From the IMG/VR virus record IMGVR_UViG_3300034143_000010: DNA of 64,000 nucleotides. One strand, given 5' to 3'. The notes beneath the pieces were generated by a model. The model had not been told where the DNA came from and ran no database searches. It was given only the letters and a program-made list of their open reading frames with translations. Positions within the stretch are counted from its first letter, which is position 1, and each line of letters opens with the position of its first letter. The DNA comes from a virus. Below are positions 7,958 through 34,625 of the stretch, one piece after another. The position numbers and the translations under genes are program-made.

Positions 7958-8088
7958 ATTAATACCTTGTCTATAGTGGCATTTGAAGAGAATAGATTTT
8001 GCATGTTATGCTCAACTCTTATTATCTTCCCTTCTTATACACCTTTGAATCAGCTTTAACCTTTGGCTGTCTGCTACTGCTTACCGTT

Positions 8089-8140
8089 TTACTTCTCTTC
8101 AGCTTTCAAATCACGAATCAATCTATCAAATGCTTTCTGA
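8089..8140 (-). pseudogene. 3' remnant of a pentapeptide-TIR gene
   Basis: Encodes KAFDRLIRDLKAEEK*, nearly identical to the end of 33481-34554 (KAFDRLLRDLKAEEK*). Confidence 0.8.
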
Positions 8141-8160
8141 TATGAACCCTGCATCCGTTC

Positions 8161-8811
8161 TTACTTCTTTAAGAGTTCATCTTGAGGAATCAGAGTATCT
8201 AAAGGGTAGCAACTGACGCTAAAGGAATCGGTGTATTCTTTCGCTTTCCAACTTGGTTCTACTAACATTGCTAAATCAGGAGGCGCTGCCCCTAAATAAG
8301 GATATACTTCTACCCCCTTTCTGTGATTGTGAACTACAAGCCAGAACTTTTCACCTAAATAGGGAGTCTTATGAATTGGTGATCTACTGTTTCTTGCTTT
8401 AATTATCCTCTCTGCTTTTGAAGTTAAAGAGTAACAAGTTCTATGAGTACCATCTGTAAAGACGCGGGCGTCGCCTTTCAATAAGCCAAGTTTTTCTAGA
8501 GTTTTAATAGTATTTGCTTCGATGTTGTCTATTTCTGATTTATCATTAATTCTAAACCATCTAATTGTACCTTGATACCATTCTAAAACATTTGCTGTAT
8601 AGTCTAATTCAAGTAGAAGTTGAAGCATTTCACTAATGCTTATTAAAATTTGCTCTTTGGCGGGAGGCTGGAGCGTCTTATCTGCTGCTTGCGCGTGCGT
8701 GATTAACGTTTCAGCTTGAGAGAAATCAATAGCAAGTTTTGCGCCATCTTGTAAGCAGTACTGTAAAGCATCATCCGTATAAGTACTCTGGCATTGGGGA
8801 CATCGTTTCAT
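8161..8811 (-). CDS. Zinc-ribbon N-terminal hypothetical protein
   Basis: MKRCPQCQSTYTDDALQYCLQDG. Start refined to the ATG 1 nt after the HTH stop. Confidence 0.7.
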   Translation of the reverse strand: MKRCPQCQSTYTDDALQYCLQDGAKLAIDFSQAETLITHAQAADKTLQPPAKEQILISISEMLQLLLELDYTANVLEWYQGTIRWFRINDKSEIDNIEANTIKTLEKLGLLKGDARVFTDGTHRTCYSLTSKAERIIKARNSRSPIHKTPYLGEKFWLVVHNHRKGVEVYPYLGAAPPDLAMLVEPSWKAKEYTDSFSVSCYPLDTLIPQDELLKK

Positions 8812-8812
8812 C

Positions 8813-9034
8813 TTACTTCTTACCACCCTTCTTACTCGCCTTTGAACTCTCAGCTTTAACCTTTGGCGGTCTGCCCGGCTTACGATCTTCAACCAGTTTC
8901 AAGTCACCTTCTTGGATGAAGTAATCCCGGCCCATCTTCTCCGCAGGCAAACGCCCTTCTTCAATAAATTGATGTACGCGACGGACGGTAACGTCTAAGC
9001 GGGAGGCAGCTTCTTTTGTCGTCAGAAGGTTCAT
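8813..9034 (-). CDS. Small excisionase-like (HTH_17) DNA-binding protein
   Basis: MNLLTTKEAASRLDVTVRRVHQFIEEGRLPAEKMGRDYFI plus basic tail. TTGACG-17-TATAAG ends 7 nt before the ATG. Confidence 0.85.
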   Translation of the reverse strand: MNLLTTKEAASRLDVTVRRVHQFIEEGRLPAEKMGRDYFIQEGDLKLVEDRKPGRPPKVKAESSKASKKGGKK

Positions 9035-9084
9035 AGTCAGCCTTATACCCCTAAATAAACTCTTCGTCAAGGTGAAGATTTCCA

Positions 9085-9113
9085 TTGACAAACCCTTCAT
9101 CTTGATGTAGAGT
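9085..9113 (+). promoter_or_regulatory. sigma70 promoter for the rightward module operon
   Basis: TTGACA-17 bp-TAGAGT upstream of the 48-aa ORF. Confidence 0.7.
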
Positions 9114-9150
9114 TTTTGTTAGTCGGACATACCACAAAGGAGCATCAAAC

Positions 9151-9297
9151 ATGAACCGCACAGCCAGCACAACCAACATCACGGTCAGCACCACAACGGC
9201 CAAGCCAGCCAGCAAATACGAGATTAAACAGAGAATCGAAGTTGATGCTTTCGGGCGCAAGCGCACGGCTGAATATGTGAAGGGCATACGTATCTGA
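9151..9297 (+). CDS. 48-aa protein ending in GIRI
   Basis: RBS aaggag, then MNRTASTTNITVSTTTAKPASKYEIKQRIEVDAFGRKRTAEYVKGIRI. Paralog at 32961-33107. Confidence 0.75.
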   Translation: MNRTASTTNITVSTTTAKPASKYEIKQRIEVDAFGRKRTAEYVKGIRI

Positions 9298-9388
9298 AAG
9301 TCAATAAGGGGCGGCTCACTGGTCAGAGTGCGCCGCCCCTTGCACATCCACCCGAATCACCGCACAGCCATATGAGGGGAAACAGGAG

Positions 9389-9790
9389 ATGCAAAATAAT
9401 CCTATCACACAACGGGGCAGCGTCGTAGACCTTGCCCTCTGGCGCAGACAATCGGAGCAGACCGACAAGGCGCTCGCCTTCGTCACCGACTCCGCCGAAT
9501 CAATCATCGTTGAATTCCAACTGACAGACGACGAGCAGGGATTCTTTCAGCGCGGTGATCGTATCTACTGCACCCGCACACAGAATCTTCTACACGGCGA
9601 AACAGGGCTCATCCTCACACCCTACGGCTACATGGTCAGGCGCTACTACATGATGCCGGAAGGCTTCGTCATGCTCAGAAGTTTATTGAACAGTCCAGAC
9701 CTGTGCCTTCATCCGAGAGAGGTCGAGATAGTTGGCCGCGCCTATCAACTTGTGCGCTCTCTGAACGGGCCTGAAAGTGAGGCCGCGTGA
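9389..9790 (+). CDS. Stand-alone degenerate S24/LexA-like C-terminal domain protein
   Basis: GDRIYC...GYMVRRY...MLRSLLNSPD...EVEIVGRAYQLVR follows the S24 pattern but lacks catalytic Ser/Lys and any HTH. Confidence 0.6.
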   Translation: MQNNPITQRGSVVDLALWRRQSEQTDKALAFVTDSAESIIVEFQLTDDEQGFFQRGDRIYCTRTQNLLHGETGLILTPYGYMVRRYYMMPEGFVMLRSLLNSPDLCLHPREVEIVGRAYQLVRSLNGPESEAA

Positions 9791-10146
9791 TGAAAAGACG
9801 AACGCGTAAGCGAGAGCGCCGGAAGATGACGGCGAAACAGGCCAAGGGATTCAGATTGCATAGCGTGAGTTGCGCCGTCGAGCTTTACGGAGCAGAGAGC
9901 GCCACGGCGAAAGGCATGGAATTGGTCAACACCGTACTGATGAGCGGGAGAAGGGACAGGAGGGCTCATGCTCTGATGGAGTTGATCTATTTGCTCTCGA
10001 CAAGGAAGGCGAGGGGCGAGCGGGCACAGATGGTCTTCTATTGCCTGTTTCAAGCGGGCCTTTTCCTTGACAGATGGCGGACGTTCTCCAGCAGGGTTGC
10101 GGCCTACATGAAAACAAGAGACAAACGGGTTCTTCACGTCAAATAA
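9787..10146 (+). CDS. Hypothetical basic protein (module gene)
   Basis: 119-aa ORF with a near-identical paralog at 32109-32462. Confidence 0.7.
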   Translation: MMKRRTRKRERRKMTAKQAKGFRLHSVSCAVELYGAESATAKGMELVNTVLMSGRRDRRAHALMELIYLLSTRKARGERAQMVFYCLFQAGLFLDRWRTFSSRVAAYMKTRDKRVLHVK

Positions 10147-10237
10147 AAGGGGCGTGAAGAGGAAGGGGCGCGGGCTCTCCCGCCAAAAGAATCGGGAGCT
10201 TGAAGCGAGCAGAGCCCGCGCCTCTCAGATAAAAGCG

Positions 10238-10738
10238 ATGGATACTTACAGAGAATTACCATTAGTCAATTCAGAGCAGATGGCGAGAGTTGATCTTGAA
10301 GATTACCTTCGCCTCAATCGCTATCGCTGGCATCTCACGCGGGTAGGTAAATACTCATACGTCTATCGGCTCAGGTGTATGGCCGGACGCTCCACGCAAA
10401 TAATGCTTCATCATGCCATCTTAGACTTACCGCAAGGCGTGCGCGTGAGGCGCATCAATAAAGAGACTCTTGATTATCGCCGCGCTAATCTGAGAATCAC
10501 TGACGGCTCTATCTATCGCAATCCACATTCAAAGCGTTGCCCCTATGCTGTGTGCATCACGATTGACGGGAAGCACTTCTACGTGGGGAGTTGGCCGACA
10601 AAGGAATGGGCGAAGAGGGCGAGAGATGCGGCGGCGGAAGCGGCAAAGACGTTGCGCGGTCGGGGGCTCTCGGAGAGGGCTATTCAGCGCGAGCTTGATC
10701 TGGCGGCGGGCCGGGATGTGAGGAAGAAAGCGGCATAG
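10238..10738 (+). CDS. Degenerate HNH-AP2 domain DNA-binding protein
   Basis: LHHAILDLPQGVRVRRINKETLDYRRANLR (HNH_3 pattern with DH replaced by RR) and ITIDGKHFYVGSWPTKEWAKRARDAAA (AP2-like). Confidence 0.7.
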   Translation: MDTYRELPLVNSEQMARVDLEDYLRLNRYRWHLTRVGKYSYVYRLRCMAGRSTQIMLHHAILDLPQGVRVRRINKETLDYRRANLRITDGSIYRNPHSKRCPYAVCITIDGKHFYVGSWPTKEWAKRARDAAAEAAKTLRGRGLSERAIQRELDLAAGRDVRKKAA

Positions 10739-10747
10739 TTTAACTAT

Positions 10748-11590
10748 ATGAGTAGAAGGCTCACACATAAAACTTGCACCGACTGCGGCGAGACAAAACC
10801 GCGCTCGGATTTTAGCTACGGCACAAAGGGCGAGACGCGACCATTCTGCGCGGATTGTCGGGACTTGCGAAACGTGCGGCGATATAAGGCTTGCACAGAA
10901 GGTCGGATGCGATACCTTGCCTCTATCAAAAACACTTCTGAGGTTAAAACCCTAGAGTGCCGCGAATGTAAATCAGTAAAACCTGTTTATGAATTTGCCA
11001 CGTATCTTAACTCAGAGGGTGAGCGGAAGCATTATAGAAGATGTAAGAGTTGCTACAACGAAGCCCAAAGACTTCTTCGCTTAAATTCAGGCTATACAAC
11101 AAAGCCTAGAATAAAAACAAAACCTTTCTTCTGTGCAAAACTTGGGCTGCTCACCAAGCTATGCTCTAAATGCGGCGAGGTCAAACCGTTAGACGAATTC
11201 CCGAAACTGTCTATTAAACGTGGATACCATACCGCCTGCGCCGTTTGCATGCGACGGGCGCACAAAGAATGGCTGAAAAAGAATCCCGACAAGTATATCG
11301 CGAATCGAATAAAGAGAATTCAAAGATTGCTTAGTGCGCCTTTAACAGAGGAAATTAACAGGGATGAAATTATCGAAAGGGATGCGCGCACTTGCTATCT
11401 CTGCGGGCGTAAACTAGAGGATGAAGTAATCACTTTAGATCATGTTATACCCCTTGCGCGGGGCGGCTCGCATACCGCTTCAAATCTTCGCGTAGCCTGT
11501 TTGAAGTGTAACAGCCGAAAAGGCGCAAAGCTTTTGCATGAATTAGATTGGATTAACGCTGAAACTTATGCAACCGCTCAAGCCCTGTAA
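10748..11590 (+). CDS. HNH endonuclease with N-terminal CxxC zinc-finger repeats
   Basis: CYLCG...TLDHVIPLARGGSHTASNLRVACLKCNSRKG and repeated CxxCGExKP units. Confidence 0.88.
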   Translation: MSRRLTHKTCTDCGETKPRSDFSYGTKGETRPFCADCRDLRNVRRYKACTEGRMRYLASIKNTSEVKTLECRECKSVKPVYEFATYLNSEGERKHYRRCKSCYNEAQRLLRLNSGYTTKPRIKTKPFFCAKLGLLTKLCSKCGEVKPLDEFPKLSIKRGYHTACAVCMRRAHKEWLKKNPDKYIANRIKRIQRLLSAPLTEEINRDEIIERDARTCYLCGRKLEDEVITLDHVIPLARGGSHTASNLRVACLKCNSRKGAKLLHELDWINAETYATAQAL

Positions 11591-12305
11591 AAAATGCGGC
11601 GAGATGAAGCCGTTGGATGCTTTTCATAAAGACCCCGGCACACGTGACAGACGGAAAAACACGTGTCGCAAGTGCCGCCAATACAGAGAATGGATGCCTC
11701 TTACTTCAAGGCCGTGCTTGAAGTGTGGAGAGGTTAAGCCTCTAACTGAATTTCTGCCTAAATCAAGACAGCCCAAAAAGCCCGGACTTGCGCAGGTAGA
11801 GCCCAACTGCCGACCATGCTACAACGCCCTTCAAAGGGCTCGCTACAGAGAGAAGCACCCGGCGCGTCCAGAGCAGCCGCCTCCCACAACTAAAAAGTGC
11901 AAAGGATGTGGTCTAGTTAAGCCGCATTCTGAATTCTATTTCTATAAAAAGAATGGTCGTATCCGATGGCATTCACCATGTAAGACCTGCTACGTAGTTG
12001 TAAACCGCAATCGTCAAGGTGTTAGACGTGCCCGGTTAAATTCCGCGCCAAAAATTGAAAAGATTGATCGTAACGAAATAATCAGGAGGGATAACGGCGT
12101 CTGCTACCTGTGCGGGCAAGATATACCTGTGAATGAAATATCTTTAGATCACGTCATCCCGCTAGCGCGTGGTGGCTCGCATACAAAGGACAATCTTCGC
12201 GCAGTCCATAAAAGATGTAACTCTCGAAAAAAGGCTAAGCTTCCGAGCGAGCTTAATTGGCTTCCGCGCCCCTCTCTTCTTGGCCTTAACCTCACAGGGG
12301 AATAA
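11568..12305 (+). CDS. HNH endonuclease with N-terminal CxxC zinc-finger repeats (paralog)
   Basis: CYLCG...SLDHVIPLARGGSHTKDNLRAVHKRCNSRKK. Confidence 0.88.
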   Translation: MQPLKPCKKCGEMKPLDAFHKDPGTRDRRKNTCRKCRQYREWMPLTSRPCLKCGEVKPLTEFLPKSRQPKKPGLAQVEPNCRPCYNALQRARYREKHPARPEQPPPTTKKCKGCGLVKPHSEFYFYKKNGRIRWHSPCKTCYVVVNRNRQGVRRARLNSAPKIEKIDRNEIIRRDNGVCYLCGQDIPVNEISLDHVIPLARGGSHTKDNLRAVHKRCNSRKKAKLPSELNWLPRPSLLGLNLTGE

Positions 12306-12309
12306 CACA

Positions 12310-15300
12310 TTACCTTGAAAGCACCCCCGCGATTGATTCCGCTAAGTCCCTATGACCTCTCTTCTGATTGAAGCTTGAGCCGCGTGGTTTGGGGACGGTG
12401 ACGTTAATATGGTTGATTGTGGTGTTACCGCCCTGTTGAGCTTGCGGCGAACCCAGTGGAATGATCTGGCCGTCAACGTCGGGCTTGAAATACTCCGTGC
12501 CGTTCTCGTTGACCTCGTAGAGAGTCCCGGCTTCTACCGGGCCGCCGAGAGCGCGCGGGCCACCGAAATTCTTTAGAGTTGGCGGCGAGGTTGGCCTGCC
12601 GGTATTCGGGCCTTCATCTGCGCTACCTCCGCCGCCATCGCCCATGCTACCGATAGCGCCACTAATTGCACCGCTGATGACAGCATTCAGGAGCCCGCCC
12701 AAGAAGCTTTGCTCATGCGGCGTCAACAGCCTCTCCATCGTAGATTCAAGTTGATGGATGCTGTTGTTCGTAGCGTTCCCCTGATTGGCAATCGTCGCCT
12801 CTATGTCCTTCCCTGTACGCTCTATCGTTTCATTGATCGAATCGGTGAGGCTTGGCGCTATCTTGCTCAGGTCTGCGGCCTCAGTTGATACAGGGCCGTC
12901 CTTATTGAGAAACTTGGATTGAAGGCCGGATATTTTCTTATGTAGTGAATCGCTGCTAAGCAAGTCGGTGAGCGAACCGAGCCCCGCATGGCTTCTTAGA
13001 GCAAGCGTGTTTTCGATTGTGGCGCGTGTGTTGTCCGCGATAACCGCGTCCGGCGAGCTATCATTTTTGACGCCTAGAATGTTGCCGAATAGCTTCTCGA
13101 ATACGCCGCCTATTAAGCCCTTGTTCTTATCACCGTCTCCAAACAGTGCATCATTGATTTTCTGAGCAAAGCTGTTGGCGATGCCGCGCTGGACGGACTC
13201 AAGGAAACCGAGGGCGAAGTTCTTTCCGGCTGTGACACCTTTCCCTCGCATGAGGTCTAGCAGTGAGTCACTGATAATGCCTTCCGTATCTTTGCTAAGA
13301 TTTTCAACCGCGTCTTTTGTTCGTGCCTCAGCCATTTCTGCGGCGTCCTGCGCTTTTTTAATCAATGGCGGTAAATTCTCAAAAGCGCTCGCCGTTTCAA
13401 GGGCCGGAAGCTGTAGGGCTCGTAATGCACGCGGGACATAGTTGATTGATAACTCGTTAGCACTTCTCTCTGTATCAATGATTTCGCTGTGCGCTCGCTT
13501 GAGTGCGTCAAATGACGGGTTAATCTTTGAAAAATCAATATCAGGAATGTAATCAACAGTCGGTATTGATGCGACGATGCGCTGTGATGCTGCAATTGCT
13601 TCACGGACTCTCAACTCTTCTTTAAGGTAGGCAAGATACTCTTCGGCGAGTTCGGTTTTCTTCTCTACCGTAAGGTTATATGCCTCTTCTGCACCGATGC
13701 GTCGCTGAAAAAAATCTTCCATCAAACGGATGTCGTCAGCGGTCAACACAAGTGCGTCTTTAGTGCTTTTCTGCTTGTTGATTCGATTGGCGCGACCTTG
13801 CAGTTCGCCTGATTGCACCCCTTCAAAGAGTGAGAATAGGTCATCTGTAATACCACTTGTGCCGACCGCTTCTTCGGGCACTATCTGCCAGGCAGGGGGG
13901 AATTTTGATGGTGGCGCGTGTCGCTCCGTATCAGACGACGGCATCACTGAGACGGGCACAAGGTTGTCGGATTGCGTCCGACTAAGACTTGCCATAATGC
14001 TCTGAATATATTTTTGTGTCTCTTTGTAGGGTGGAATGCCGTGGTATTTCTCAACCGCGCCCTCGCCCGCGTTATATGCAGCAAGGGCTAAGCGAACATC
14101 GCCAGCAAATTTATCTAGCAAGTCAGCTAGGTAGCGCGTGCCGCCTTCAATGTTCTGTGCGGGGTCAAACGGGTCATTGACGCTATACCTTCTGGCCGTG
14201 CCGTCCATCAACTGCATGAGCCCCTTCGCGCCTTTAGGCGAAACAGCATCAACCCTTCCGCGGGATTCCTGCATAATGACGGCACGGATTAGGTCAGCAG
14301 AAAGCCCCGTGCGCTTGGCATTTTCGAGGATGAGCTTTTCAATCTCAGGCGGGAACGGTTTTCTCATCCCTTCTTGCAGGCCCAGATAGAAACCCTCGGC
14401 AGCGAATAAGCCAAGTTTGATGAACTCTTTCGCTGGCGAGCGCGCGCCGATAGCGTCAGCGGTAGCCGTGATGGCGTCGTGCCCCATATTCGCGGCAGCG
14501 CCCATCACGCCCTTAGTGCCTTCGTTTATACCTTGAGCCAAGCCAGCCGCGACATTTAATCCGAGAGCGTTAATATCTCCGCTCATCACCGCCTTGACGG
14601 TGTTCTCCATCGAATCAAAGAGCCTGCTTGTGCCCGTGCTTACCCCTCCAACAAGACGATCTGCCGCCTCGCTGTTTACCCCTTGCAACATTAAGCCAAG
14701 AACTTGCTTGTAACGCTCGAATGCCGGGCCGCTCGCCGTTCCTAGCTGGCGACTAAGCGCCGTGCCAAGATTCGTTTCAATGCCGCTCGCTGTCTTCTCG
14801 CTGATCTCTTTACCAAGTCCCCCAAAGTCCTTATCAATTCCGCGAAGGATGACAGCGACGGCAGTACGGGCATTAAGCAAGCCATGCTCCGCCATTTCCT
14901 GAACTTTGGAGATTCGTTTTTCTTCTGTAAGATTGCCGAGCTTTGAATCTGTGCGCGCGATTTCGTCAGCAAGATATCTCCACGCCGGGATGCCCGCCTC
15001 TACGAGCTGGCGACTCATCTCTTCCGCAGAGACTTTTCCTTTATTCCACATCTGACCGAGCGCGAGAGTAATTGAGTCAATCTTTTGTGCCGCCTCTGCA
15101 CCAGTCTTGCCTGCCCCTGCGGCGGCATCGCCGGCGGCGCGCAGGATAGGAATAACCTGTTTGGCGTTGAAGCCCATCGCCAAAAGGCGTTGCGCCCCTG
15201 TATAGACGCCGGGCAAGTCCATCGGTGACTCTCGCTCAAAAGCGGCGAGTTGGCCCATGAAGTCTTTCGCGGCTTTTCCATCTTTGAGTATCTGAGTAAA

Positions 15301-25832: not shown

Positions 25833-27595
25833 ATCCTGAACTCAACTGATCCCACTTCTTTGGTTTTGAATAGGAAGTCGGGAGCGACTGACAACACGAA
25901 GCCGTCACCGTCGTCGGGCGAGCGACCCAATCGTTTGGGTTTGCGAAACTCTATCTTCGACTCCAGCCTCTTAACGTCCACGCCCTTGAGGTTGACCCAC
26001 TCGTAAAGGCGCTCACACAGATCGGCTTCGAGCGTCTCCGGGGGCTTTTCGATGCGTATCCCCTTCAGCGTCTCCGCCGCTTCGGCCATCGCTTGAGTGA
26101 TCAGATCGTGATAGGACTTCTCGTCGGTGGCACTGGCATTGAAATGCACTTCGTAGACACGGAAGTCTATGAACGCGGCGCGCAGCTCCATATCGGTTTT
26201 GAGCTTGTCCACGACGCCGCCACCGAAGCCGCCGCCGCCATCGACGCGGATGTGCAGGCTTTTAACGCCCTTCCCGGCGAGCTTGAGAGCCTCTGCCTTG
26301 ATGACGCGCGCATAATCGTTCGTGTCCTGTTTCCAGAACTGCGCGGCGCGCCAGGCGCGGCCCATGTAGCGAATAAAGAGTGTTCCGTAGTCACGCCCGT
26401 AGCGAGATACGTCCACGCCCATGCGCGCGCGCGTCGGGTCTTCTGCTGGAGCCTCCCGCTTGCAGGCAGCCTCGTAGCGCCCGACGGTAATCAGGCTCTT
26501 GTCGGAGATATTTGCCGGAGCAATGCCGAGCACGCGGAACATGAATTCCGGGTCGGGCTTAAAGATCGTGCCCTCCGGATGCGTGCCGTCTTTAGTGACG
26601 ACCGGGAAAGGTAGCTCGAAGGTCAAGTCATCTTCAGAGTGCTCAGTGACAACCTCGCAGTGCTTCTCCACCATTTCCTCGACGTACTGCCGCTTGACCG
26701 CGCCCGGCACGACCTCACGGCCTGCGACGACGTTCGGGTGATGAATGCAGGAGATGCGAAAGCTCTTGACGTTGGAATTGTTTTTCGCCTTATGAAACTT
26801 CGACGAGCGGGTCTTAGGGTTCGCCAGCATGAGCACGATGGAGATTCCGCCCGAGGTCATCGAATCAACCGCATTCCAGACGAAGTCGGCTACGCCCTCG
26901 GCCTCATCCAGCACATAGAGGTTATATTTGCCGTGCTGGCCCTGCGCGCGCTCTGTTCCTGTGCCGCTGGCGTTGTTTGTCGCCTTGCCCTTGATGAAGT
27001 GCTCGTCGCCTACCCTGATCTCCAAATCCATGACCCGGCCCGGAAGGCCCTTGTCGCGCCTGTCAGTCTTTATCTCCTTGAATAGCAGGTCATGAATCTG
27101 CTCGCCTGAAGGCGCAAAGCAGTACCCGACGCATGGCGTGAAGTGATCGAAGAAGTGGTTGACCAAGCCGGAGGTCAGCTTGGTCTTACCGACGGTGTGA
27201 CCGGCTTCGACACGAATACGGTTTTTAATGACTTGTCCGGGCTTCCAATACTGTAGATCGTCAACTGTAATAGGCCCCGGCTTCAGCCACGGGCAATACG
27301 GCGCATCTTCTTCGGAAAGGAAGCCAGCTTCGTATGCCTTGCGCTCGTGCTGCTGTCGTAGCGCGAGCACGTAAGCGTCTATAACCTGCTGCTGACCGGG
27401 ATGATCTTCGTCTCCGCTCCATGGCTCCCAGCCCAGATGATTCTTGATATAGGTGGCCGGTTCGTAGTGCGTAGCATTGAAGCGGCTCGTCTGAGGAGCT
27501 GGGCCATAGACCTTTAAGGCAAGCTGCGCGGCCTCCGCCTGTTGGTCAGGCGGCAACTGCATTATGCGTGCATAGACTTCCTCACGACTGAGCAT
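25829..27595 (-). CDS. terL: Terminase large subunit
   Basis: Walker A-like AGHTVGKT, Walker B VLDEAEG, nuclease GVDVSRYGRD and SPDDGDG. Start refined to MLSREEVY. Confidence 0.9.
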   Translation of the reverse strand: MLSREEVYARIMQLPPDQQAEAAQLALKVYGPAPQTSRFNATHYEPATYIKNHLGWEPWSGDEDHPGQQQVIDAYVLALRQQHERKAYEAGFLSEEDAPYCPWLKPGPITVDDLQYWKPGQVIKNRIRVEAGHTVGKTKLTSGLVNHFFDHFTPCVGYCFAPSGEQIHDLLFKEIKTDRRDKGLPGRVMDLEIRVGDEHFIKGKATNNASGTGTERAQGQHGKYNLYVLDEAEGVADFVWNAVDSMTSGGISIVLMLANPKTRSSKFHKAKNNSNVKSFRISCIHHPNVVAGREVVPGAVKRQYVEEMVEKHCEVVTEHSEDDLTFELPFPVVTKDGTHPEGTIFKPDPEFMFRVLGIAPANISDKSLITVGRYEAACKREAPAEDPTRARMGVDVSRYGRDYGTLFIRYMGRAWRAAQFWKQDTNDYARVIKAEALKLAGKGVKSLHIRVDGGGGFGGGVVDKLKTDMELRAAFIDFRVYEVHFNASATDEKSYHDLITQAMAEAAETLKGIRIEKPPETLEADLCERLYEWVNLKGVDVKRLESKIEFRKPKRLGRSPDDGDGFVLSVAPDFLFKTKEVGSVEFRI

Positions 27596-28100
27596 TGTCA
27601 GCAGGCAGCTCGTCAGGAGAAGCGCCAAGAAGTTCTGCCAGAGCCTCACGCGCATTAACCTTCACGTCTACTTTCTGGCGGCGGTCGCCCATCTCTTTAG
27701 CGATGTCATCAAGCAGGCCACGGAATTGCGTAACCTCCGCTGAATTGAAAGTATCGACATCAACGATTTCCTGAAAATCGCCACTGCCGACGGCCTTCCT
27801 ATCGGGCAGCCACAACCGGCCATTTTCGAGTAGGTCTTTCTCCAGTTCTTCGGCGAGCTTATTCAGCGACTCAACGCGCCGCTCCTTGCGGGCAAAACCT
27901 ACTTTCAGCGCGCTCGTCTCCGCTTCATCCTTAATCTGCGAGACCTTCACTTTGCGCGTTTTGCGATAGTGGTCTACCTGCTGGCGTGAGACTGAGTAAG
28001 GCTCGTCGAACTTACTTGCCTGCTCGTTAATCTCGTTGCTTTCGAGGCCCTCTGAGATCAATGCGAGCAGGTGCTTTTTTTGGTCGCTGTTCAGCTTCAT
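27582..28100 (-). CDS. Putative terminase small subunit
   Basis: Helical ORF overlapping the terL start. VSRQQVDHY, LDDIAKEMG. Confidence 0.65.
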   Translation of the reverse strand: MKLNSDQKKHLLALISEGLESNEINEQASKFDEPYSVSRQQVDHYRKTRKVKVSQIKDEAETSALKVGFARKERRVESLNKLAEELEKDLLENGRLWLPDRKAVGSGDFQEIVDVDTFNSAEVTQFRGLLDDIAKEMGDRRQKVDVKVNAREALAELLGASPDELPADNAQS

Positions 28101-28308
28101 CGTTTTCTTGCCCAGGCTCGGCATCAACGAACCTGACTGTTACTTCAAGGAGACGCGCGCGCCCGTGATGCGCGAGCAGAAGCGCCGCGTCGGCTTCGGA
28201 GGCTGGCAGGTCGAGCTTGATGCGCGCACCGTCGCCTCGCCCACCGGAGAAAGTCACAGCGCTTTGAATCGGCGGCAGTGAGGCGAGGAATTTGATCTCA
28301 TCTACCAA
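28027..28308 (-). CDS. Hypothetical protein
   Basis: DEIKFLASLPPIQSAVTFSG.GDGARIKLDLP. TTG start inferred. Confidence 0.5.
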   Translation of the reverse strand: MVDEIKFLASLPPIQSAVTFSGGRGDGARIKLDLPASEADAALLLAHHGRARLLEVTVRFVDAEPGQENDEAEQRPKKAPARIDLRGPRKQRD

Positions 28309-28495
28309 GCTGTCCCGCCTTGAATTGGAGGAATCTGTAAGGCTCTGTGTTCCTGTATTGCAGCGCGGCGCACCTGTCGCACCGCCGCACTTCCCTGTCC
28401 CTGCGAACGGTGCCGCCGTGCCAGACGCACCAGGCATGGAGAGGAAGGAGGTTGCAGAGTAAGAATTTAAGAATTTTGTTCATCGCACTTGTCAC
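28298..28495 (-). CDS. Small Cys-containing hypothetical protein
   Basis: LCNLLPLHAW...RCDRC. Coupled to neighbouring ORFs. Confidence 0.45.
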   Translation of the reverse strand: MTSAMNKILKFLLCNLLPLHAWCVWHGGTVRRDREVRRCDRCAALQYRNTEPYRFLQFKAGQLGR

Positions 28496-28505
28496 CCGTT
28501 ACTTG

Positions 28506-28901
28506 TCAGGCCTGCACAGTAAGTTGGCGGGCCATCTGCCGCGCACGCTTCGCCTCGCGCCGGTTCACCTTCGGCTCCTTGCGCACGGCGGTGATGCCGC
28601 GTATGAAATTGCCATCTTCTGGGTTCACACGGTCTGATCGGTGCGCATAGACGCCGTAGCGACCGCACACAGCTGATGGCTTATCAGCCTCTTCCTGCCG
28701 CTTCTGAAGCTCGTAGCGGCGTACATTACACTCAGCTTGAGAGCGCGCCGTATCCGGGTGCTTACAAGCCCTGTGATAGCCCGCCTCAACCGTTCCTGCT
28801 TCGATCAGGTCTGCGAGCAGCCTGATCTTGACCTCCTGCGGGTCGGTCTGCCGCTCCATCTCAGCGGCGACCTTCAGTTCTATTTCTTCGAGATCGATCA
28901 T
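28506..28901 (-). CDS. Hypothetical protein
   Basis: RBS ggag before MIDLEEIELK. Confidence 0.55.
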   Translation of the reverse strand: MIDLEEIELKVAAEMERQTDPQEVKIRLLADLIEAGTVEAGYHRACKHPDTARSQAECNVRRYELQKRQEEADKPSAVCGRYGVYAHRSDRVNPEDGNFIRGITAVRKEPKVNRREAKRARQMARQLTVQA

Positions 28902-29007
28902 TTTGTCTCCTGTTTGACTGCTCCGACGAAGCCTTGATAACAGAGGATTTGAATCACCAGAGTTATGGCCCGGTTTATGATCTTCACTGCGATACCTCAT
29001 GCTTCAA

Positions 29008-29026
29008 AATCGTCAAATTTACGAAT
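29008..29026. repeat. Palindromic repeat, copy 3
   Basis: aatcgt caaattt acgaat. Confidence 0.9.
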
Positions 29027-29027
29027 A

Positions 29028-29216
29028 TCAACTCTGTAGATTCTCGGCCCACTCGACCTGTCCCCGCACCACGAAGAACTGCGCGCCGCAGTCGTGCGGA
29101 CAAATGATCGAAGGCTCAGCCGACCATGTGCCGCCTTCGTGCTGTGTGATCTCGTGTTCGTCGAGAGTCATCCAGCCGCCGCAGCGCGGGCACTTGATTT
29201 TCTTCCTGATACTCAA
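29028..29216 (-). CDS. Small zinc-binding protein (DUF6527-like)
   Basis: CPRCG...TWSAEPSIICPHDCGAQFFVVRGQVEW. Confidence 0.55.
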   Translation of the reverse strand: MSIRKKIKCPRCGGWMTLDEHEITQHEGGTWSAEPSIICPHDCGAQFFVVRGQVEWAENLQS

Positions 29217-29341
29217 GACTCTTGCTCCCTCTTCGCCCGCTCCTTGTAGTAGTTGTCAAGCAACTTCTGAATGACGATGCTCAGAATGCCGATAAAAGCG
29301 ACGATCACGCTTGCAACGCCGCTATCTAATTTCCTGCGCAT
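29213..29341 (-). CDS. 42-aa single-TM protein
   Basis: MRRKLDSGVASVIVAFIGILSIVIQKLLDNYYKERAKREQES*, overlapping both neighbours. Confidence 0.5.
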   Translation of the reverse strand: MRRKLDSGVASVIVAFIGILSIVIQKLLDNYYKERAKREQES

Positions 29342-29937
29342 GGAAGCTTCTCCTCTGGAATTCTGAAGAATGCCTGAACGACCCTTGGGTCGAACTGGCT
29401 GCCGCTACAACGTGTCAGCGCCGCGGCTGCCGCCTGATAGCCTTTCCCTGCGCGATAACACCGGTTATTCGTGATGGCGTCATAAGCATCGGCCACGGCC
29501 ACGATGCGCGCCCCGAGCGTGATCCCAGCGCCTGCAAGGCCGCACGGGTAGCCATGTCCGTCAAATCGCTCGTGATGCTGGCCGACGATATCAACGATAT
29601 GGACGGGCATCTCCAGTTCGGCGAGGGCCGCCGTGCCCTCGATAACATGCGCTCGCATGTGCATGCGCTCGATAGCCGTTAATTCGCCTTCCTTCTTGAG
29701 CACAGAGTCTTTCGTGCAAATCTTGCCGATGTCGTGAAGCTGTGCGCCGTAATAGAGCGCGAGCAACTCGGCGCGCTCGAGCTTCAGCTCTCTGCCGATA
29801 AGCACGGAAACACGCGCGACCCGTAAAACATGGTCATGCGTTCCCCTATCCTTTAACTTGAGCGCAACTAACAATGCACTGCTAGCGATTCTTAGTGCAT
29901 CGCCCGTAAGTGCAGAAGATTTTAATGTTATCGGCAT
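29326..29937 (-). CDS. Stand-alone HD-GYP phosphodiesterase
   Basis: HVLRV, LHDIGKI, HVIEG, QHHERFDGHGYPCGL, ARIVAVADAYDAIT, GSQFDP. Confidence 0.92.
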   Translation of the reverse strand: MPITLKSSALTGDALRIASSALLVALKLKDRGTHDHVLRVARVSVLIGRELKLERAELLALYYGAQLHDIGKICTKDSVLKKEGELTAIERMHMRAHVIEGTAALAELEMPVHIVDIVGQHHERFDGHGYPCGLAGAGITLGARIVAVADAYDAITNNRCYRAGKGYQAAAAALTRCSGSQFDPRVVQAFFRIPEEKLPCAGN

Positions 29938-30263
29938 TTAATTATTCGGACGGTGTTATGCCCTGAAACCCTTCCACCGATGTAGCTTAGGTAAATCCGG
30001 TCTTACGTTTTGGGAGGGTGTCCGCGCCCCTCACGAACAGGTTATCTAAGACCTCTCTTTAGTTTATTTAGGGTGTCCGCCCGCCCGCCATTGAGAGCCT
30101 AATAAAGCCCGACGTTTAATTACTCAGAGGGTGTCCGCCTTGACGCACTCCGCCGAAAAGAGCTTAGATAAAATGGATATTTAACTTTTCAGGGGGGTGT
30201 TACGGCTTTTGCCCCTACAGGCAAAGGGTAGGACTTTTAATTGATTAGTTTGGGGAGGGTGAA
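29919..30263 (-). promoter_or_regulatory. Tandem array 2 of six tripartite promoter-like units
   Basis: (G/C)GGTG(T/A) at 29951, 30016, 30071, 30129, 30195, 30257. Each has YTAA (GTAA in unit 2) and a TANNNT hexamer at 13-14 nt on the minus strand. Confidence 0.75.
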
Positions 30264-30266
30264 ACG

Positions 30267-30299
30267 GTGAATAGGAAGAGAATAATTGCTATCGGTTTA
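30267..30299 (+). pseudogene. 5' remnant of a DUF4177-like gene
   Basis: GTG-NRKRIIAIGL resembles MFISRKIIAIGL of 5723 at the same position relative to the array, then similarity stops. Confidence 0.6.
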
Positions 30300-30346
30300 C
30301 CTTCGCCTCTAGTTTGCCGTCACTTTGATAGTTTCTCTTAGCTTAT

Positions 30347-30500
30347 CAAAGTGATCGCGCGTGCCCGTGACTACTCCGCATTACGCGGCTTCTCAAGCAA
30401 CGCCCTCCCTAATGGGACACGTTTGCGCTTGAAGGTTAAGCCCTAACCTCAATATCTCTAATGCGGCAGAGTGGTCACGACTAACACTCAAGCCGCATGT
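30347..30500 (-). ncRNA. Predicted TnpB omega-RNA (scaffold ending at TCAC 30367, guide beyond)
   Basis: Minus strand gagaagccgcgtaatgcggagtagTCAC is a typical IS200/605 right end just after tnpB. The 5' extent is a guess. Confidence 0.55.
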
Positions 30501-31514
30501 TTGGCATTCATGCCAGCGTTGCGAGAGTGTTTTAGGTACGCCAGCGCCGCATGTGCATCTCTGTGATGTTCCGCGAGGGTCAACTTTAACCAGCTTGCGT
30601 CCAGTCTCTTCCACTTTGTACGCAACCTTATTTAAAAAGCTTGACCATCCAGCATCATTAACAGACTTGGCTAGCATTCCGCTCGCCAAGCCTTTAATGT
30701 TCAAATCTTCTATGGCGATCAATCCGTAATTGTTGACGAGAGCGCGAGAGGCTTTATGGTGAAAGTCTGCGCGTTGATTCTTAATGTGGGCATGAATGCG
30801 CTGTAGAAGTTGCACGGCTTTCCGGCGACGATGAGAGCCTTTCTTCCGTCGTGCTACTTTGCGCTGTGCCCTGCGAAGCTTGGCTTGTGCTGTCTTGAAA
30901 TAGCGCGGGTTCTCTATTTCTGTACCATCAGAGAGGGTAGCGAAAGTGGTAAGGCCAACATCTATTCCAATAGACTCAGAGCAAGGCGGCAATGGCTTCT
31001 CTTCACATTCAAGACTAAAACACACGTACCAACGTCCAGCCTCGCGCTTAACAGAAACTGTCTTGATCTTGCCTTCGATAACGCGGTGAAGTTTTACTTT
31101 AACGAGCCCAATCCCTTGCAGTCTTAACTTGCCATTATCAAGTAAGCGGCAACCATTACCATAAGCAGGATAGGTAAAGCTGTCGAAGCGGCGTGCAGAT
31201 TTAAATCGCGGAAATCCCGCTTTCTCTTTACGCTTCACGCGAGCAAAGAAAGCCTTGAACGTCTTATCAAGACGGCGCAATACATCATGCGCTACGTTGC
31301 AATTGAAGATACCAGTGTCGCCCTCCGCTCGAATCTCTTTAAGCTGGCGTGTTTGATCGTATAGTTGGATGGACTTGCGCTCTAACTTCCAAGCGTCGCG
31401 GCGCTCCTGAAGCCCAGCGTTATAAAGTCTGCACGCCTCCGCTAGTTGACCATTCAGCAAGTCAACCTGTGCGCGTGTCGGATACAACCTATACTTGAAA
31501 GTCTTACGAATCAT
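30393..31514 (-). CDS. tnpB: RNA-guided endonuclease TnpB (IS605/IS1341-type)
   Basis: KTFKYRLYPT N-terminus, RuvC IGIDVGL / IAIEDLN / SRDHSAA, zinc finger CTCG...CQTCG. No tnpA in the window. Confidence 0.95.
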   Translation of the reverse strand: MIRKTFKYRLYPTRAQVDLLNGQLAEACRLYNAGLQERRDAWKLERKSIQLYDQTRQLKEIRAEGDTGIFNCNVAHDVLRRLDKTFKAFFARVKRKEKAGFPRFKSARRFDSFTYPAYGNGCRLLDNGKLRLQGIGLVKVKLHRVIEGKIKTVSVKREAGRWYVCFSLECEEKPLPPCSESIGIDVGLTTFATLSDGTEIENPRYFKTAQAKLRRAQRKVARRKKGSHRRRKAVQLLQRIHAHIKNQRADFHHKASRALVNNYGLIAIEDLNIKGLASGMLAKSVNDAGWSSFLNKVAYKVEETGRKLVKVDPRGTSQRCTCGAGVPKTLSQRWHECQTCGLSVSRDHSAALEILRLGLNLQAQTCPIREGVA

Positions 31515-31521
31515 CTGCTAT

Positions 31522-32022
31522 TTACGCAGCCTTCTTTCTCACATCCCGGCCCGCCGCCAGATCAAGCTCGCGCTGAATAGCCCTCTCCGAGAGCCCCCGA
31601 CCGCGCAACGTCTTTGCCGCTTCCGCCGCCGCATCTCTCGCCCTCTTCGCCCATTCCTTTGTCGGCCAACTCCCCACGTAGAAGTGCTTCCCGTCAATCG
31701 TGATGCACACGGCAAACGGGCAACGCTTTGAATGAGGATTGCGATAGATAGAGCCGTCAGTGATTTTCAGATTAGCGCGGCGATAATCAAGAGTCTCTTT
31801 ATTGATGCGCCGCACGCGCACGCCTCGCGGCAAATCCAACACGGCATGATGAAGCATTATTTGTGTGGAGCGTCCGGCCATACACCTGAGCCGATAGACG
31901 TATGAGTATTTACCTACGCGCATGAGATGCCAGCGATAGCGATTGAGGCGCAGGTAATCTTCAAGATCAACTATCGCCGTCTGCTCTGAATTGACTAATG
32001 GTAATTCTCTATAAGGTTTCAT
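31522..32022 (-). CDS. Degenerate HNH-AP2 domain protein (paralog of 10238-10738)
   Basis: Near-identical sequence, same loss of HNH catalytic residues. Confidence 0.7.
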   Translation of the reverse strand: MKPYRELPLVNSEQTAIVDLEDYLRLNRYRWHLMRVGKYSYVYRLRCMAGRSTQIMLHHAVLDLPRGVRVRRINKETLDYRRANLKITDGSIYRNPHSKRCPFAVCITIDGKHFYVGSWPTKEWAKRARDAAAEAAKTLRGRGLSERAIQRELDLAAGRDVRKKAA

Positions 32023-32108
32023 CGCTTTTGATTCGAGGCGCGGCCCACTCGCTTCAAGCTCCCGACCTTTGGCGAGAGAGCCCGCGCCCCGTCCTCTTCA
32101 CGCCCCTT

Positions 32109-32462
32109 TTATTTGACGTGAAGAACCCGCTTGTCCCTGGTTTTCATGTAGCCCGCAACCCTGCTGGAGAACGTCCGCCACCTGTCAAGGAAAAGGCCCG
32201 CCTGAAACAGGCAATAGAAAACCATCTGTGCCCGCTCGCCCCGCTCCTTCCTTGTAGAGAGCAGATAGATCAACTCCATCAGAGCATGAGCCCTCCTATC
32301 CCTTCTCCCGCTCATCAGTACGGTGTTGACCAAAGCCATACCCTTCGCCGTGGCGCTCTCTTCTCCGTAAAGCTCGACGGCGCAACTCACGCTATTCAAC
32401 CTGAATCCCTTGACCTGTCGTGCCGTCATCTTCCGGCGCTCGCGCTTTCGTCTACTCATCAC
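32109..32462 (-). CDS. Hypothetical basic protein (paralog of 9787-10146)
   Basis: Near-identical translation. Confidence 0.7.
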   Translation of the reverse strand: MMSRRKRERRKMTARQVKGFRLNSVSCAVELYGEESATAKGMALVNTVLMSGRRDRRAHALMELIYLLSTRKERGERAQMVFYCLFQAGLFLDRWRTFSSRVAGYMKTRDKRVLHVK

Positions 32463-32860
32463 GCGGCCTCACTTTCAGGCCCGTTCAGAGAGCGCACAAG
32501 CTGGTAGGCGCGGCCAACTATCTCGACCTCGCTCGGATGAAGGCACAGGTCTGGACTATTCAATAAACTTCTGAGCATGACGAAGCCTTCCGGCATCATG
32601 TAGTAGCGCCTGACCATGTAGCCGTAAGGTGTGAGGACGAGCCCTGTTTCGCCGTGTAGAAGATTGTTCGTGCGGGTGCAGTAGATACGGTCGCCGCGCT
32701 GAAAGAATCCCTGCTCGTCGTCTGTCAGTTGGAATTCAACGATGATTGATTCGTCGGAGTCGGTGACGAAGGCGAGCGCCTTGTCGGTCTGCTCCGATTG
32801 CTTTCGCCAGAGGGCAAGGTCTGACACGTTGCCCCGTTGTATGTTAGGATTGTTTTGCAT
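32459..32860 (-). CDS. Degenerate S24/LexA-like C-terminal domain protein (paralog of 9389-9790)
   Basis: Near-identical translation. Confidence 0.6.
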   Translation of the reverse strand: MQNNPNIQRGNVSDLALWRKQSEQTDKALAFVTDSDESIIVEFQLTDDEQGFFQRGDRIYCTRTNNLLHGETGLVLTPYGYMVRRYYMMPEGFVMLRSLLNSPDLCLHPSEVEIVGRAYQLVRSLNGPESEAA

Positions 32861-32960
32861 CTCCTGTTCTTCCCCTCAATTTTTGGCTGTGCGGGTGGAT
32901 AGGTTGGTGTTCAGGCAGCGGCGCACTCTGACCAGTGCGCCGCTGCTATTTAGTTTCACC

Positions 32961-33107
32961 TCAGATACGGATGCCCCTCACATATTCAGCCGTGCGCTTG
33001 TGCCCGAAGGCATCAACTTCGATTCTCTGTTTAATCTCGTATTTGCTGGCAGGCTTGGCCGTCGTGGTGCTGACCGTGATATTGGTTGTGCTGGCTGTGC
33101 GGTTCAT
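32961..33107 (-). CDS. 48-aa protein ending in GIRI (paralog of 9151-9297)
   Basis: MNRTASTTN...AEYVRGIRI*. TTGACA-18-TAACAT promoter upstream. Confidence 0.75.
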   Translation of the reverse strand: MNRTASTTNITVSTTTAKPASKYEIKQRIEVDAFGHKRTAEYVRGIRI

Positions 33108-33225
33108 CTCTTTAGCTCCTGTCGTGATGTGTAACTGACGGAAGAGATGTTAACGCACGAGTAAGCGTCTTGTCAAGCAAATAATTACTCTTGCGTAAAT
33201 ATCTTTTTGGATTTAGAATGCGCGC

Positions 33226-33447
33226 ATGGTCAAAGGAATGTTTACTACTGAAGAGGCAGCAGCAGAATTAGGCGTGACCTCTGCGCGCGTGCGGCAGATG
33301 ATTATTGATGGCACTATTGAAGCTGAGAAGTTTGGGCGCGACCTTTTGATAACAGCAGAGGCGCTTCAAGTGGCGAGGCAGAGAAAAACGAAGCCCGGCC
33401 CGACTCCAACAGCTAAGAAATCAGCAAAGAAAAGCAGTAAGAAGTAA
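33226..33447 (+). CDS. Small excisionase-like (HTH_17) DNA-binding protein
   Basis: FTTEEAAAELGVTSARVRQMIIDGTIEAEKFGRDLLI. TTGCGT-17-TAGAAT ends 6 nt before the ATG (probably leaderless). Confidence 0.85.
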   Translation: MVKGMFTTEEAAAELGVTSARVRQMIIDGTIEAEKFGRDLLITAEALQVARQRKTKPGPTPTAKKSAKKSSKK

Positions 33448-33480
33448 CAAGCCTCTTACCCCTCACCGGAGCTAATCATT

Positions 33481-34554
33481 ATGGCTGACCCTGAACATTT
33501 AAAGCTTCTCCTAGAGTATGATGTATTCACTTGGAATAATTGGAGAGAGAGTAACCCTGAAGTAACTCCTGATCTTAGCGAAGCTATTCTTGATAAAGTA
33601 AATCTAATTAGGTTCAACCTCAGTTGGGCGAATTTGAATGACGCGAGACTTTCTGATGTAGACCTTTCAAAAGCTATTCTTGATCGAGCAGACCTAAGAG
33701 ACGCATATCTCTTTGATACAAACCTTGAAGGCGCTGATCTAATACAGTCAAACCTTGAAGGCGCAACTCTATTCAGAGTAACGTTGCGCGAGGCTAGACT
33801 TGTAGAGACGATCTTACGATTTACAACACTCTTCAGCACAAACCTAGACTCAGCAGACCTAACGAGAGCGGACTTTGCTGATGCTAGAATTGCTGATGTC
33901 AATTTTATCCGCAATGACCTTAGCGTAGTTAATAATCTACATTCAGTACGTCACTCTGGGCCTTCAAATATAAGCATTGATACGCTGTATATATCCTCTG
34001 GGGGAATTCCGGAAGTCTTTCTGCATGGCTGTGGCGTACCCGAGTCATTTATTTTTCAAGTCCCTGCACTTGTCGCATCAATTGAACCAATCCAGTTCCA
34101 CTCTTGCTTTATTAGCTACAGTACAAAAGATGAGGGATTTGCTAGACGGCTTTATTCACGAATGCGAGATGAGAAATTGCGCGTATGGTTTGCCCCTGAA
34201 GATATAAAGGGTGGGCAGAAATTGCATGAACAGATAGAGCGAGCTATTCAACTGCATGACAGACTTTTATTAGTGTTATCTGAGAACAGTATGCAAAGCG
34301 AATGGGTAATAACTGAGATTCAGGGGGCACGGAAAACAGAGATTGAAGAGAACAGACGTAAACTGTTCCCGATTACTATTGTAAATTTCGATAAAGTCAA
34401 AACTTGGAAATGCTTCGATGCTGACAGCGGCAAAGATTTAGCTAAAGAGGTGCGCGAGTATTACATACCTGATTTCTCAAACTGGAAAGATCAGGATTCA
34501 TTCGAGAAAGCATTCGATAGATTGCTTCGTGATTTGAAAGCTGAAGAGAAGTAA
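33481..34554 (+). CDS. Pentapeptide-repeat plus TIR domain protein
   Basis: A(D/N)LxxA pentapeptide repeats, SCFISYSTKD...VRVWFAPED, SEWVITEI (catalytic Glu). Confidence 0.9.
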   Translation: MADPEHLKLLLEYDVFTWNNWRESNPEVTPDLSEAILDKVNLIRFNLSWANLNDARLSDVDLSKAILDRADLRDAYLFDTNLEGADLIQSNLEGATLFRVTLREARLVETILRFTTLFSTNLDSADLTRADFADARIADVNFIRNDLSVVNNLHSVRHSGPSNISIDTLYISSGGIPEVFLHGCGVPESFIFQVPALVASIEPIQFHSCFISYSTKDEGFARRLYSRMRDEKLRVWFAPEDIKGGQKLHEQIERAIQLHDRLLLVLSENSMQSEWVITEIQGARKTEIEENRRKLFPITIVNFDKVKTWKCFDADSGKDLAKEVREYYIPDFSNWKDQDSFEKAFDRLLRDLKAEEK

Positions 34555-34625
34555 AATGGTAAGCAGGAGTAGACCGCTAAAGGCTAAAGACGATTCAAAG
34601 GTGAGTAAGAAGGGTAGAAAGGCCA

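Follow-up and report, generated by a model that had tools for sequence, protein, structure and literature searches.

The stretch of DNA analysed here (IMG/VR record IMGVR_UViG_3300034143_000010; 64,000 nucleotides (nt), called the window throughout) is a prophage, with a tape-measure protein, a DUF4055-type portal and tail genes, and our subject is a repeat of 60–73 nt found at junctions in front of several of its cargo genes. A regulatory module of 1.6 kb is present twice in the window, in inverted orientation and with 92% identity: copy 1 (9138–10737) is the left flank of cargo slot 1 and copy 2 (31523–33120) that of slot 2. Each module copy is followed by a different allele of a small helix-turn-helix (HTH) gene of the HTH_17 family, which we call the leader, then by low-GC cargo and finally by a common 72-nt border. 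The leader of slot 1 (8813–9100, minus strand; 95 amino acids (aa); PF12728 at 33.6 bits, with a cut-off of 27) likely has its real start at the Met at 9034 (MNLLTTKEAA...) and is followed on the same strand by a 216-aa protein with an N-terminal Zn-ribbon (8161–8811), for which there is no Pfam or PADLOC match, and by a 627-aa TIR-TPR protein (6074–7957), whose N-terminal domain matches PADLOC TIR-TM with E = 6e-60. In slot 2, on the plus strand, the leader (33226–33447; PF12728 at 28.5 bits; 46% aa identity to that of slot 1) has a divergent C-terminal tail (KPGPTPTAKKSAKKSSKK-stop) and precedes an intact 357-aa pentapeptide-repeat-TIR protein (33481–34554), a 356-aa DUF4062 protein (34626–35696) and a 322-aa open reading frame (ORF) without a family match (35794–36762). 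The right borders (5971–6041 in slot 1 and 36881–36952 in slot 2; 92% identical) both carry an operator-like palindrome, AATCGT-N7-ACGATT, and a GC hairpin.

In sequence, the repeat corresponds to the coding tail at the 3′ end of an HTH_17 leader gene (GRPPK(A/V)KAE..SKKGxKK-stop). Its copy B (8813–8885, minus strand) is the in-frame, Lys-rich end of the slot 1 leader (RKPGRPPKVKAESSKASKKGGKK-stop, the last 24 codons), and the stop codon is separated by a 1-nt gap from the start codon of the Zn-ribbon gene. Copies A and C are relics of such a tail: copy A (8015–8085, minus strand) has no upstream ORF and lies ~65 nt ahead of the TIR-TPR start, while copy C (34556–34621, plus strand) comes immediately 3′ of the pentapeptide-TIR stop, has an ATG mini-ORF at its head and overlaps the GTG start of the DUF4062 gene. 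An nhmmer profile made from many copies detects them with E = 2e-21 (8811–8884, minus strand), 3e-11 (8015–8077, minus strand) and 1e-11 (34569–34621, plus strand), and nothing else in the whole 64-kb window scores better than E = 0.1. The original prediction, made from the window sequence alone, had thus placed all three copies at or near their actual positions, although it took the repeat to be 50 bp long. Its statement that the repeat precedes each cargo gene holds for three of the five, namely Zn-ribbon, DUF4062 and TIR-TPR, and fails for the other two: the pentapeptide-TIR gene of slot 2 is preceded only by the divergent tail of its own leader, and the profile finds no copy ahead of the 322-aa ORF.

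Next to copy A lies a scar (8089–8151, minus strand), beginning 10 nt past the Zn-ribbon stop codon (8161–8163) and consisting of the last 20 codons and the stop of a pentapeptide-TIR gene, the rest of which is gone; it reads QGSYQKAFDRLIRDLKAEEK-stop. This surviving gene end had been recognised before as about 16 codons at 8089–8140, and it is real: together with the adjoining repeat it matches the corresponding TIR end and repeat of slot 2 with 87% identity over 127 nt (8025–8151 versus 34492–34618). Apart from this 127-nt segment, slots 1 and 2 have only the module and the border in common.

Seven copies of the repeat are present in the host genome, and this single prophage accounts for five of them, spread over three cargo slots. 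The third slot (C30:14700–19250, or 4792–9250 of locus L012) lies ~4–8.5 kb to the left of the window start and is convergent with the tail genes of the phage. It contains two tandem pentapeptide-TIR paralogues (324 and 361 aa) with a tail relic after each, then a 424-aa gene with a GTG start overlapping the TGA stop of the relic, and a 199-aa gene; the HTH leader is absent and a PadR gene is found upstream in divergent orientation. The four copies outside the window are at C30:16809–16877, C30:18199–18264, C24:14151–14219 and C19:404420–404484. The C24 copy stands ahead of a paralogue of the Zn-ribbon gene with no HTH gene upstream, and the C19 copy is fused as the N-terminus of a 352-aa ORF, with an integrase ~7 kb away. 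In two of the four TIR-linked relics of the host genome an ATG right after the TIR stop (TAAAATG) opens a Lys-rich mini-ORF of 20–31 codons over the relic (34556–34651, plus strand, in the window and C30:18199–18271, minus strand); the other two have ACG (copy A) or ATA (copy D) instead. The palindrome recurs at module borders (6007–6044, 21998–22035, 28999–29036, 36879–36916, 45715–45752, 61572–61609 and C30:14674) and, with the GC hairpin that follows it, is the closing element of all three slots.

Most of the window can be traced in the host assembly, where 1–10690 corresponds to contig C30 reversed, 10582–22814 to C11 reversed and 31570–64000 to C20, and all three window copies of the repeat are in stretches 100% identical to host contigs. 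The assembly breaks exactly at the inverted 1.6-kb module, as C30 and C20 start in the module and C11 ends in it. The stretch missing from the assembly (22815–31569) holds the portal, the terminase, an HD gene, promoter array 2 and a TnpB gene. The far end of C11 has 141 nt in common with C3, so that the join at 22814 runs through a repeat.

Matches to the 73-nt tail DNA are present, at 75–94% identity, in 48 of 300 sampled Pyrinomonadaceae genomes, belonging to 22 of 60 genera, and the five genomes that were viewed closely have 3–5 copies each. An exact degenerate pattern was run against bacteria and archaea, with one genome for each of 185,579 species; of the 23 loci that it matched, 22 are in Pyrinomonadaceae metagenome-assembled genomes, and the exact pattern had no match in IMG/VR viral contigs. 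A profile of the HTH body without the tail matches more than 500 times; 195 of the 301 genomes have a match, and these belong to 52 of the 60 genera. The tallies for 300 and 301 genomes include the unpublished genomes G013, G017, G032, G110, G128, G143, G229 and G281, and locus L077 of the unpublished G013 is one row in the tail sample described below and in the boundary comparisons; no claim depends on unpublished genomes alone. As for the prophage itself, a distant DNA search of phage records with the module and HTH region gave no match, and a search with the 133-aa module protein encoded at 9389–9790 gave just two homologues among 300 genomes of the family, in G038 (29% identity) and in G127 (weak), and nothing in viral, genome or metagenome contigs.

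How variable the tail is was judged on the 30 best HTH-body loci, picked without regard to the tail. In all 30 the tail opens with G-R-P flanked by Lys or Arg, mostly as K-x-G-R-P-(P/R/K)-K, and what follows varies, from 7 to ~50 residues; the PPKAKAE..SKKGxKK form is one allele among these, found in seven of the 30. Since tails vary in this way across the HTH family, the repeat is a particular tail allele, mosaic relative to the HTH body. Judging by its composition (K-x-G-R-P-P-K...KKGxKK-stop), this Lys-rich tail may be AT-hook-like. The chromosomal HTH_17 leaders are in many loci paired with a conserved divergent gene of 113–120 aa (MRKDDSTRTP...LDERFLAG...), located at about −695 to −340 from the tail (for example L095 4913–5263 and L096 4697–5038, both on the minus strand) and without a Pfam family, and the unit of HTH gene, partner and cargo is found in varied chromosomal surroundings, for example after groEL. 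At the edges of two HTH-cargo slots there are also inverted pairs of the Acido-Lenti-1 RNA motif (RF01687, above the gathering threshold; L047 2826–2871, minus, with 2973–3019, plus, and L024 429–473, minus, with 577–621, plus).

In about 70 loci this tail is found after at least five kinds of upstream sequence. HTH_17 bodies make up ~20 of the 53 profile hits of the first locus set by our own classification. The tail is also found after an XRE-type HTH gene, either as an in-frame fusion (L038) or beyond a ~45-nt spacer (L026, L034, L103, L120 and L122), after a small 'KIGLIVNxGADKP' protein (L039, L030 and C24), after the 3′ end of a pentapeptide-TIR gene (twice in the window, twice on C30, and in L019, L020, L023, L047, L045, L115, L119 and L125) and after non-coding DNA (L013, L025 and L118). 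What looked at first like a hairpin as a further upstream context is the 3′ end of the XRE-type gene, with weak covariation. In the non-HTH contexts conservation starts at GCAGACCGCC, no more than ~10 nt from the codons for Gly-Arg-Pro (at the TIR junctions, about −14 to −20), and stops at the tail stop codon, and no relic retains a larger piece of the HTH body. The microhomology GAAGAT is shared by the TIR end (KAED) and the HTH end (VEDR) and can be seen at the junctions in L019 and L020.

On the other side of the tail stand diverse, defence-type cargo genes, which by Pfam include TIR_2, DUF4062, N6_N4 and D12 methylases, Mrr_cat, ResIII, RelA_SpoT, SLFN AlbA_2, PLDc_2, NotI and DUF6883, while about half of the cargo seen belongs to no known family. 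Left context and cargo pair combinatorially, always with the tail between them: DUF4062 genes are found behind HTH_17 (L024, L033), behind an XRE-type leader (L026) and behind a TIR relic (window); TIR-like MxxFISWSG cargo behind HTH_17 (L107, L112), XRE (L034) and a TIR relic (window); and Zn-ribbon cargo behind HTH_17 (window, L018) and non-coding DNA (C24). In 23 of the 43 repeat copies with a downstream ORF the tail stop is between −4 and +9 nt from the cargo start, with overlaps or abutments of the forms ATGA, GTGA, TAAATG and TAGATG. There are also arrays of 2–4 tail copies spaced ~350–400 nt apart between small paralogous coiled-coil genes (MTDEERQRTIDFIL...), in L102 (8707–9907; G153) and L028 (1493–2088; G158), where the relic lies in frame directly after the TAA stop of the preceding gene.

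Where homology begins and ends between loci was determined by an all-against-all comparison of 62 anchored loci, with positions counted from the tail Arg codon. The left ends of the common segment fall within 30 nt of this codon in 328 of 587 cases, and the right ends between 0 and +90 in 555 of 590. A left part of at least 140 nt (the HTH body, often with the divergent 115-aa gene) is common to 122 pairs, and in 116 of these homology is lost between −19 and +81. The opposite arrangement, a common cargo (over 126–697 nt) with different left flanks, is seen in the pairs L021/L047, L024/L026, L026/L033 and L013/L016, and there homology starts at −4 to −1. At the far boundary near −700, a tRNA or tmRNA integration site was considered and none was found; the boundary is the end of the divergent 115-aa gene.

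The allele test was run on chromosomal slots instead of the prophage slots, for which no close relatives turned up in the collections searched. In genus g47 an orthologous slot lies between the genes for a FAD-binding oxidoreductase and a TonB-type receptor in three genomes: G264 has the HTH gene and then DUF4062, G245 the same HTH gene and then pentapeptide-TIR and a relic, and G198 a different HTH allele followed by pentapeptide-TIR and a further 5 kb. The alignment is identical up to ...GTAAGAAGTAG and then switches completely past the HTH stop codon, from DUF4062 to pentapeptide-TIR. A 32-nt spacer from the HTH gene to pentapeptide-TIR is common to G245, G198 and slot 2 of the window; therefore the order 'HTH, pentapeptide-TIR, relic, X' must be old and widespread, with X variable. 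In these chromosomal slots the cargo changes between relatives do map to the repeat, as anticipated, and because the tail is widely spread and portable and the cargo changes exactly at its stop codon in an orthologous slot, the idea of a cassette-like arrangement is largely supported, with the caveats given below. This is a real, family-wide, portable junction.

The composition of the relics bears on where they come from. They differ from the consensus by 16%, as compared to 17.5% for the coding copies, their substitution rates by codon position are 0.117, 0.143 and 0.219, and their indels are in multiples of three; a divergence no greater than that of coding copies, the third-position excess and indels of this kind fit a recent and repeated derivation of relics from coding tails. 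Selection on the tail at the nucleotide level was considered on the basis of third-position identity (~0.7 in the tail versus ~0.36 in the HTH body, both approximate averages) and set aside, since the signal is biased by the choice of loci by their tail DNA, and in the sample blind to the tail the tails vary. A structured RNA or DNA site was likewise rejected: the seven repeat copies show no fold, with RNA folding z-scores of −0.70 to +1.01 relative to shuffled sequences, there is no inverted repeat, hairpin or palindrome inside the repeat unit, and Rfam gives only Acido-Lenti-1 near two slots, outside the repeat. Having no secondary structure beyond the shuffled controls, the repeat is not attC-like, and the earlier description of a defence slot without attC sites is therefore borne out.

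These data show the anatomy and distribution of the tail, the mosaic boundaries at it and the way in which left contexts and cargo combine; what, then, is its role? We lean towards the explanation that the repeat, being the last 60–70 nt of widespread small HTH_17 leader genes, moves with the cargo as a [tail+cargo] unit, in which the tail provides both coupling and homology for the left junction. HTH_17 leaders head hypervariable slots of defence-type genes, in chromosomes and in the prophage. As the tail stop abuts or overlaps the next start codon, the segment also carries the ribosome-binding region of the next gene; the cargo would keep the tail at its 5′ end, and the two would be traded between loci as one [tail+cargo] unit. 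A unit landing behind an HTH body would re-tail the HTH gene, while one landing behind a pentapeptide-TIR gene or an XRE-type leader would leave a tail relic between two genes, so that a stack forms. The left junction would be in or at the tail, using either the conserved GGCAGACCGCC patch that encodes Gly-Arg-Pro-Pro or the tail of 60 nt as a whole, and the right junction would be elsewhere, at the slot border or at an illegitimate site, as is seen at the TIR scar (8089–8151). The right junction of the Zn-ribbon insertion was illegitimate, because the scar places it outside any repeat, which suggests one homologous anchor and one non-homologous join. Homology-facilitated illegitimate recombination could plausibly combine a diverged homology of ~60 nt on one side with a non-homologous join on the other, and so would fit the TIR scar. 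We infer that recombination uses the tail as a short homology in this way or in relaxed recombination of the phage type, and that the tail probably has roles in DNA binding and translational coupling.

Several observations weigh against exchange through the tail. The breakpoints between slots 1 and 2 are at the module edge (9138/33120) and at the 72-nt right border (6041/36881), not at the repeat, and the two slots differ as entire blocks of HTH gene and cargo. The earlier proposal that cargo is stacked and swapped at fixed short homologies therefore stands in part: mosaic boundaries do fall at the tail, while the window slots differ as whole blocks and the right junction at the scar is illegitimate. 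Homology boundaries are places where conserved and variable DNA meet and not necessarily crossovers, and at orthologous slots an exchange with crossovers at any point of the conserved flanks would produce the same picture. The longest perfect identity between present copies is 13–24 nt, short for RecA. In L026/L033 the tail identity (~79%, counted by eye) is below the 83.7% of the adjoining DUF4062 gene, so that there is no extra nucleotide-level constraint on the tail there, and the conservation of third positions in the tail is, as explained, biased by the choice of loci. No close relatives of the prophage are present in any collection searched, which is why its slots were not compared allele by allele. 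Nor was a RecT found, or any other recombinase linked to the repeat. The phage RecT-like protein invoked in the original prediction is not seen: PF03837 has no match at E ≤ 0.01 in the genome, with only the large ORFs of 22815–31569 of the window scanned and models of Erf, Rad52 and Sak4 not searched, and neither the 40 window ORFs compared with Pfam nor the 10 compared with PHROGs gave a recombinase hit. The integrase family PF00589 has 11 hits in the genome, none beside the window slots, the nearest being at C20:33881, beyond the right end of the window.

An alternative is that the tail is an expression cassette and not a recombination substrate, that is, a purine-rich region of initiation and coupling (AAGAAGGG...AAGAAG-stop/start); junctions would then arise by random illegitimate events, and selection would trim away all but the part that cargo expression needs. 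In about half of the copies the stop codon touches or overlaps the cargo start, the sequence is unstructured (RNA z of −0.7 to +1.0), as expected of a ribosome landing region, and the last AGTAAGAAGTAR is common to all tail alleles, including the divergent one of slot 2. However, the 5′ half of the repeat (GCAGACCGCCnAAGGCTAAAGCTGAG), 40–60 nt before the start codon, is conserved in relics as well as the 3′ half, the cargo start is ~65 nt away from copy A and 30–200 nt away from many others, and the relic substitutions are coding-like rather than like those of a ribosome-binding site, so we consider this explanation unlikely, even if it retains some weight. The coding-like relics could also be neutral scars with no present role, in which case each cargo once had a full HTH gene, and tandem HTH-cargo insertions later lost their inner HTH bodies by deletion. 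Most relics do lack a start codon (ACG in copy A, ATA in copy D), and a single old event at the GAAGAT microhomology, with small deletions later, could account for the TIR-tail junctions. Such a history is nevertheless hard to reconcile with at least eight independent upstream contexts in which relics start within ~10 nt of the Gly-Arg-Pro codons, with the absence of any larger piece of the 150-nt HTH body, unlike what random deletion endpoints would leave, and with relics no more diverged than coding tails (16% versus 17.5% from consensus), and we regard it as very unlikely.

The sharp and recurrent edges on both sides of the tail could instead be due to a system (integron-like or homing-like) dedicated to inserting cargo precisely at the tail, whether site-specific or targeted in another way. 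The restriction of the repeat to one bacterial family and the arrays of 2–4 copies 350–1400 nt apart in several genomes (L102, L115, L119, L028 and L018) are in line with this; against it, the repeat has no hairpin or palindrome, no recombinase is consistently near (the nearest PF00589 to the window slots being the one on C20), the ~115-aa partner of the chromosomal HTH copies belongs to no Pfam family, the edges on the 5′ side are ragged, by up to ~10–20 nt (about −14 to −20 at the TIR junctions), and the cassettes have no defined 3′ end. This explanation seems very improbable to us. A lineage-specific integron-like platform, in which the leader tail would serve as acceptor site and translational coupler and cassettes would circulate between chromosomes and prophages via a dedicated recombination activity, with the 115-aa partner gene or a phage function as candidates, is a bolder proposal, which we hold only tentatively and consider doubtful.

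A few other genes of the prophage may be mentioned. Between module copy 1 and the tape-measure gene there are tandem HNH_5 endonuclease genes with Stc1-type zinc domains (10748–11590 and 11568–12305, plus strand), and an IS605-type OrfB/TnpB gene (30393–31514, minus strand) is located between promoter array 2 and module copy 2. Further on, a ThiF-family (E1-like) gene and a Prok-E2_D gene (49781–50764 and 51576–52568, both on the minus strand) stand close together, which suggests a ubiquitin-like conjugation module.

Defence genes gather in hotspots, but, integrons and transposons aside, there is mostly no explanation of how single genes enter and leave them. In the present case a short, recognisable sequence travels with the cargo and marks the junctions across many genomes of a poorly studied soil family, and one prophage with three such slots ties the phage defence pool to the chromosomal one. 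The tail could serve as a handle for finding new defence genes, as whatever comes next after it, and it offers a concrete, testable model of gene stacking via short homology and translational coupling.

We found no description of the repeat or of the HTH-tail leader in Acidobacteriota in the literature, our coverage of which is incomplete. The closest analogue is the PeSL (promoter-early stem-loop) cassettes of T4-type phages, in which short conserved expression signals flank non-essential genes in hypervariable regions, gene gains, losses and replacements between relatives map to these signals, and the signals were proposed as short homologies for modular shuffling (PMC2839356, PMC4122927). 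As with PeSL, differences in gene content map to the motif, here in 116 of 122 pairs sharing the left side and in the g47 switch at the tail stop. PeSL is, however, a non-coding promoter with a terminator hairpin, whereas the repeat described here is the in-frame coding 3′ tail of a regulator, without a stem-loop, which probably acts at translation start and coupling and is found in chromosomes as well as in the prophage. Relaxed recombination by phage Rad52-like recombinases (PMC3945230) could use a diverged homology of ~60 nt; the analogy is mechanistic only, as no such recombinase was identified here. Integrons (attI/attC, IntI) are similar in having one-directional, promoterless, unrelated genes with repeated junctions on a fixed platform, and the cargo genes of the window are likewise co-oriented and unrelated. 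In contrast to integrons, there is no attC-like hairpin and no adjacent IntI-type integrase, the junction lies within a coding tail, on the 5′ side of the cargo, and the repeat is not before every gene (three of five in the window). In the P2/P4 hotspots of prophages and satellites and in the defence islands of E. coli, changing defence cargo likewise occupies fixed positions between conserved genes (bioRxiv 10.1101/2021.01.21.427644; PMC10121019), but it is the core genes on either side that define such a hotspot, and no short internal junction repeat travels with each cargo. The Panacea (PanA) systems resemble the leaders in that one small upstream family is combined with dozens of unrelated effectors (TIR, RelA_SpoT, Mrr, PLD and others) in coupled bicistrons (PMC8832971, PMC10440598); the partner here is HTH_17 with a basic tail and not DUF4065, and it is the DNA-level relic between stacked genes that is distinctive of the Pyrinomonadaceae arrangement.

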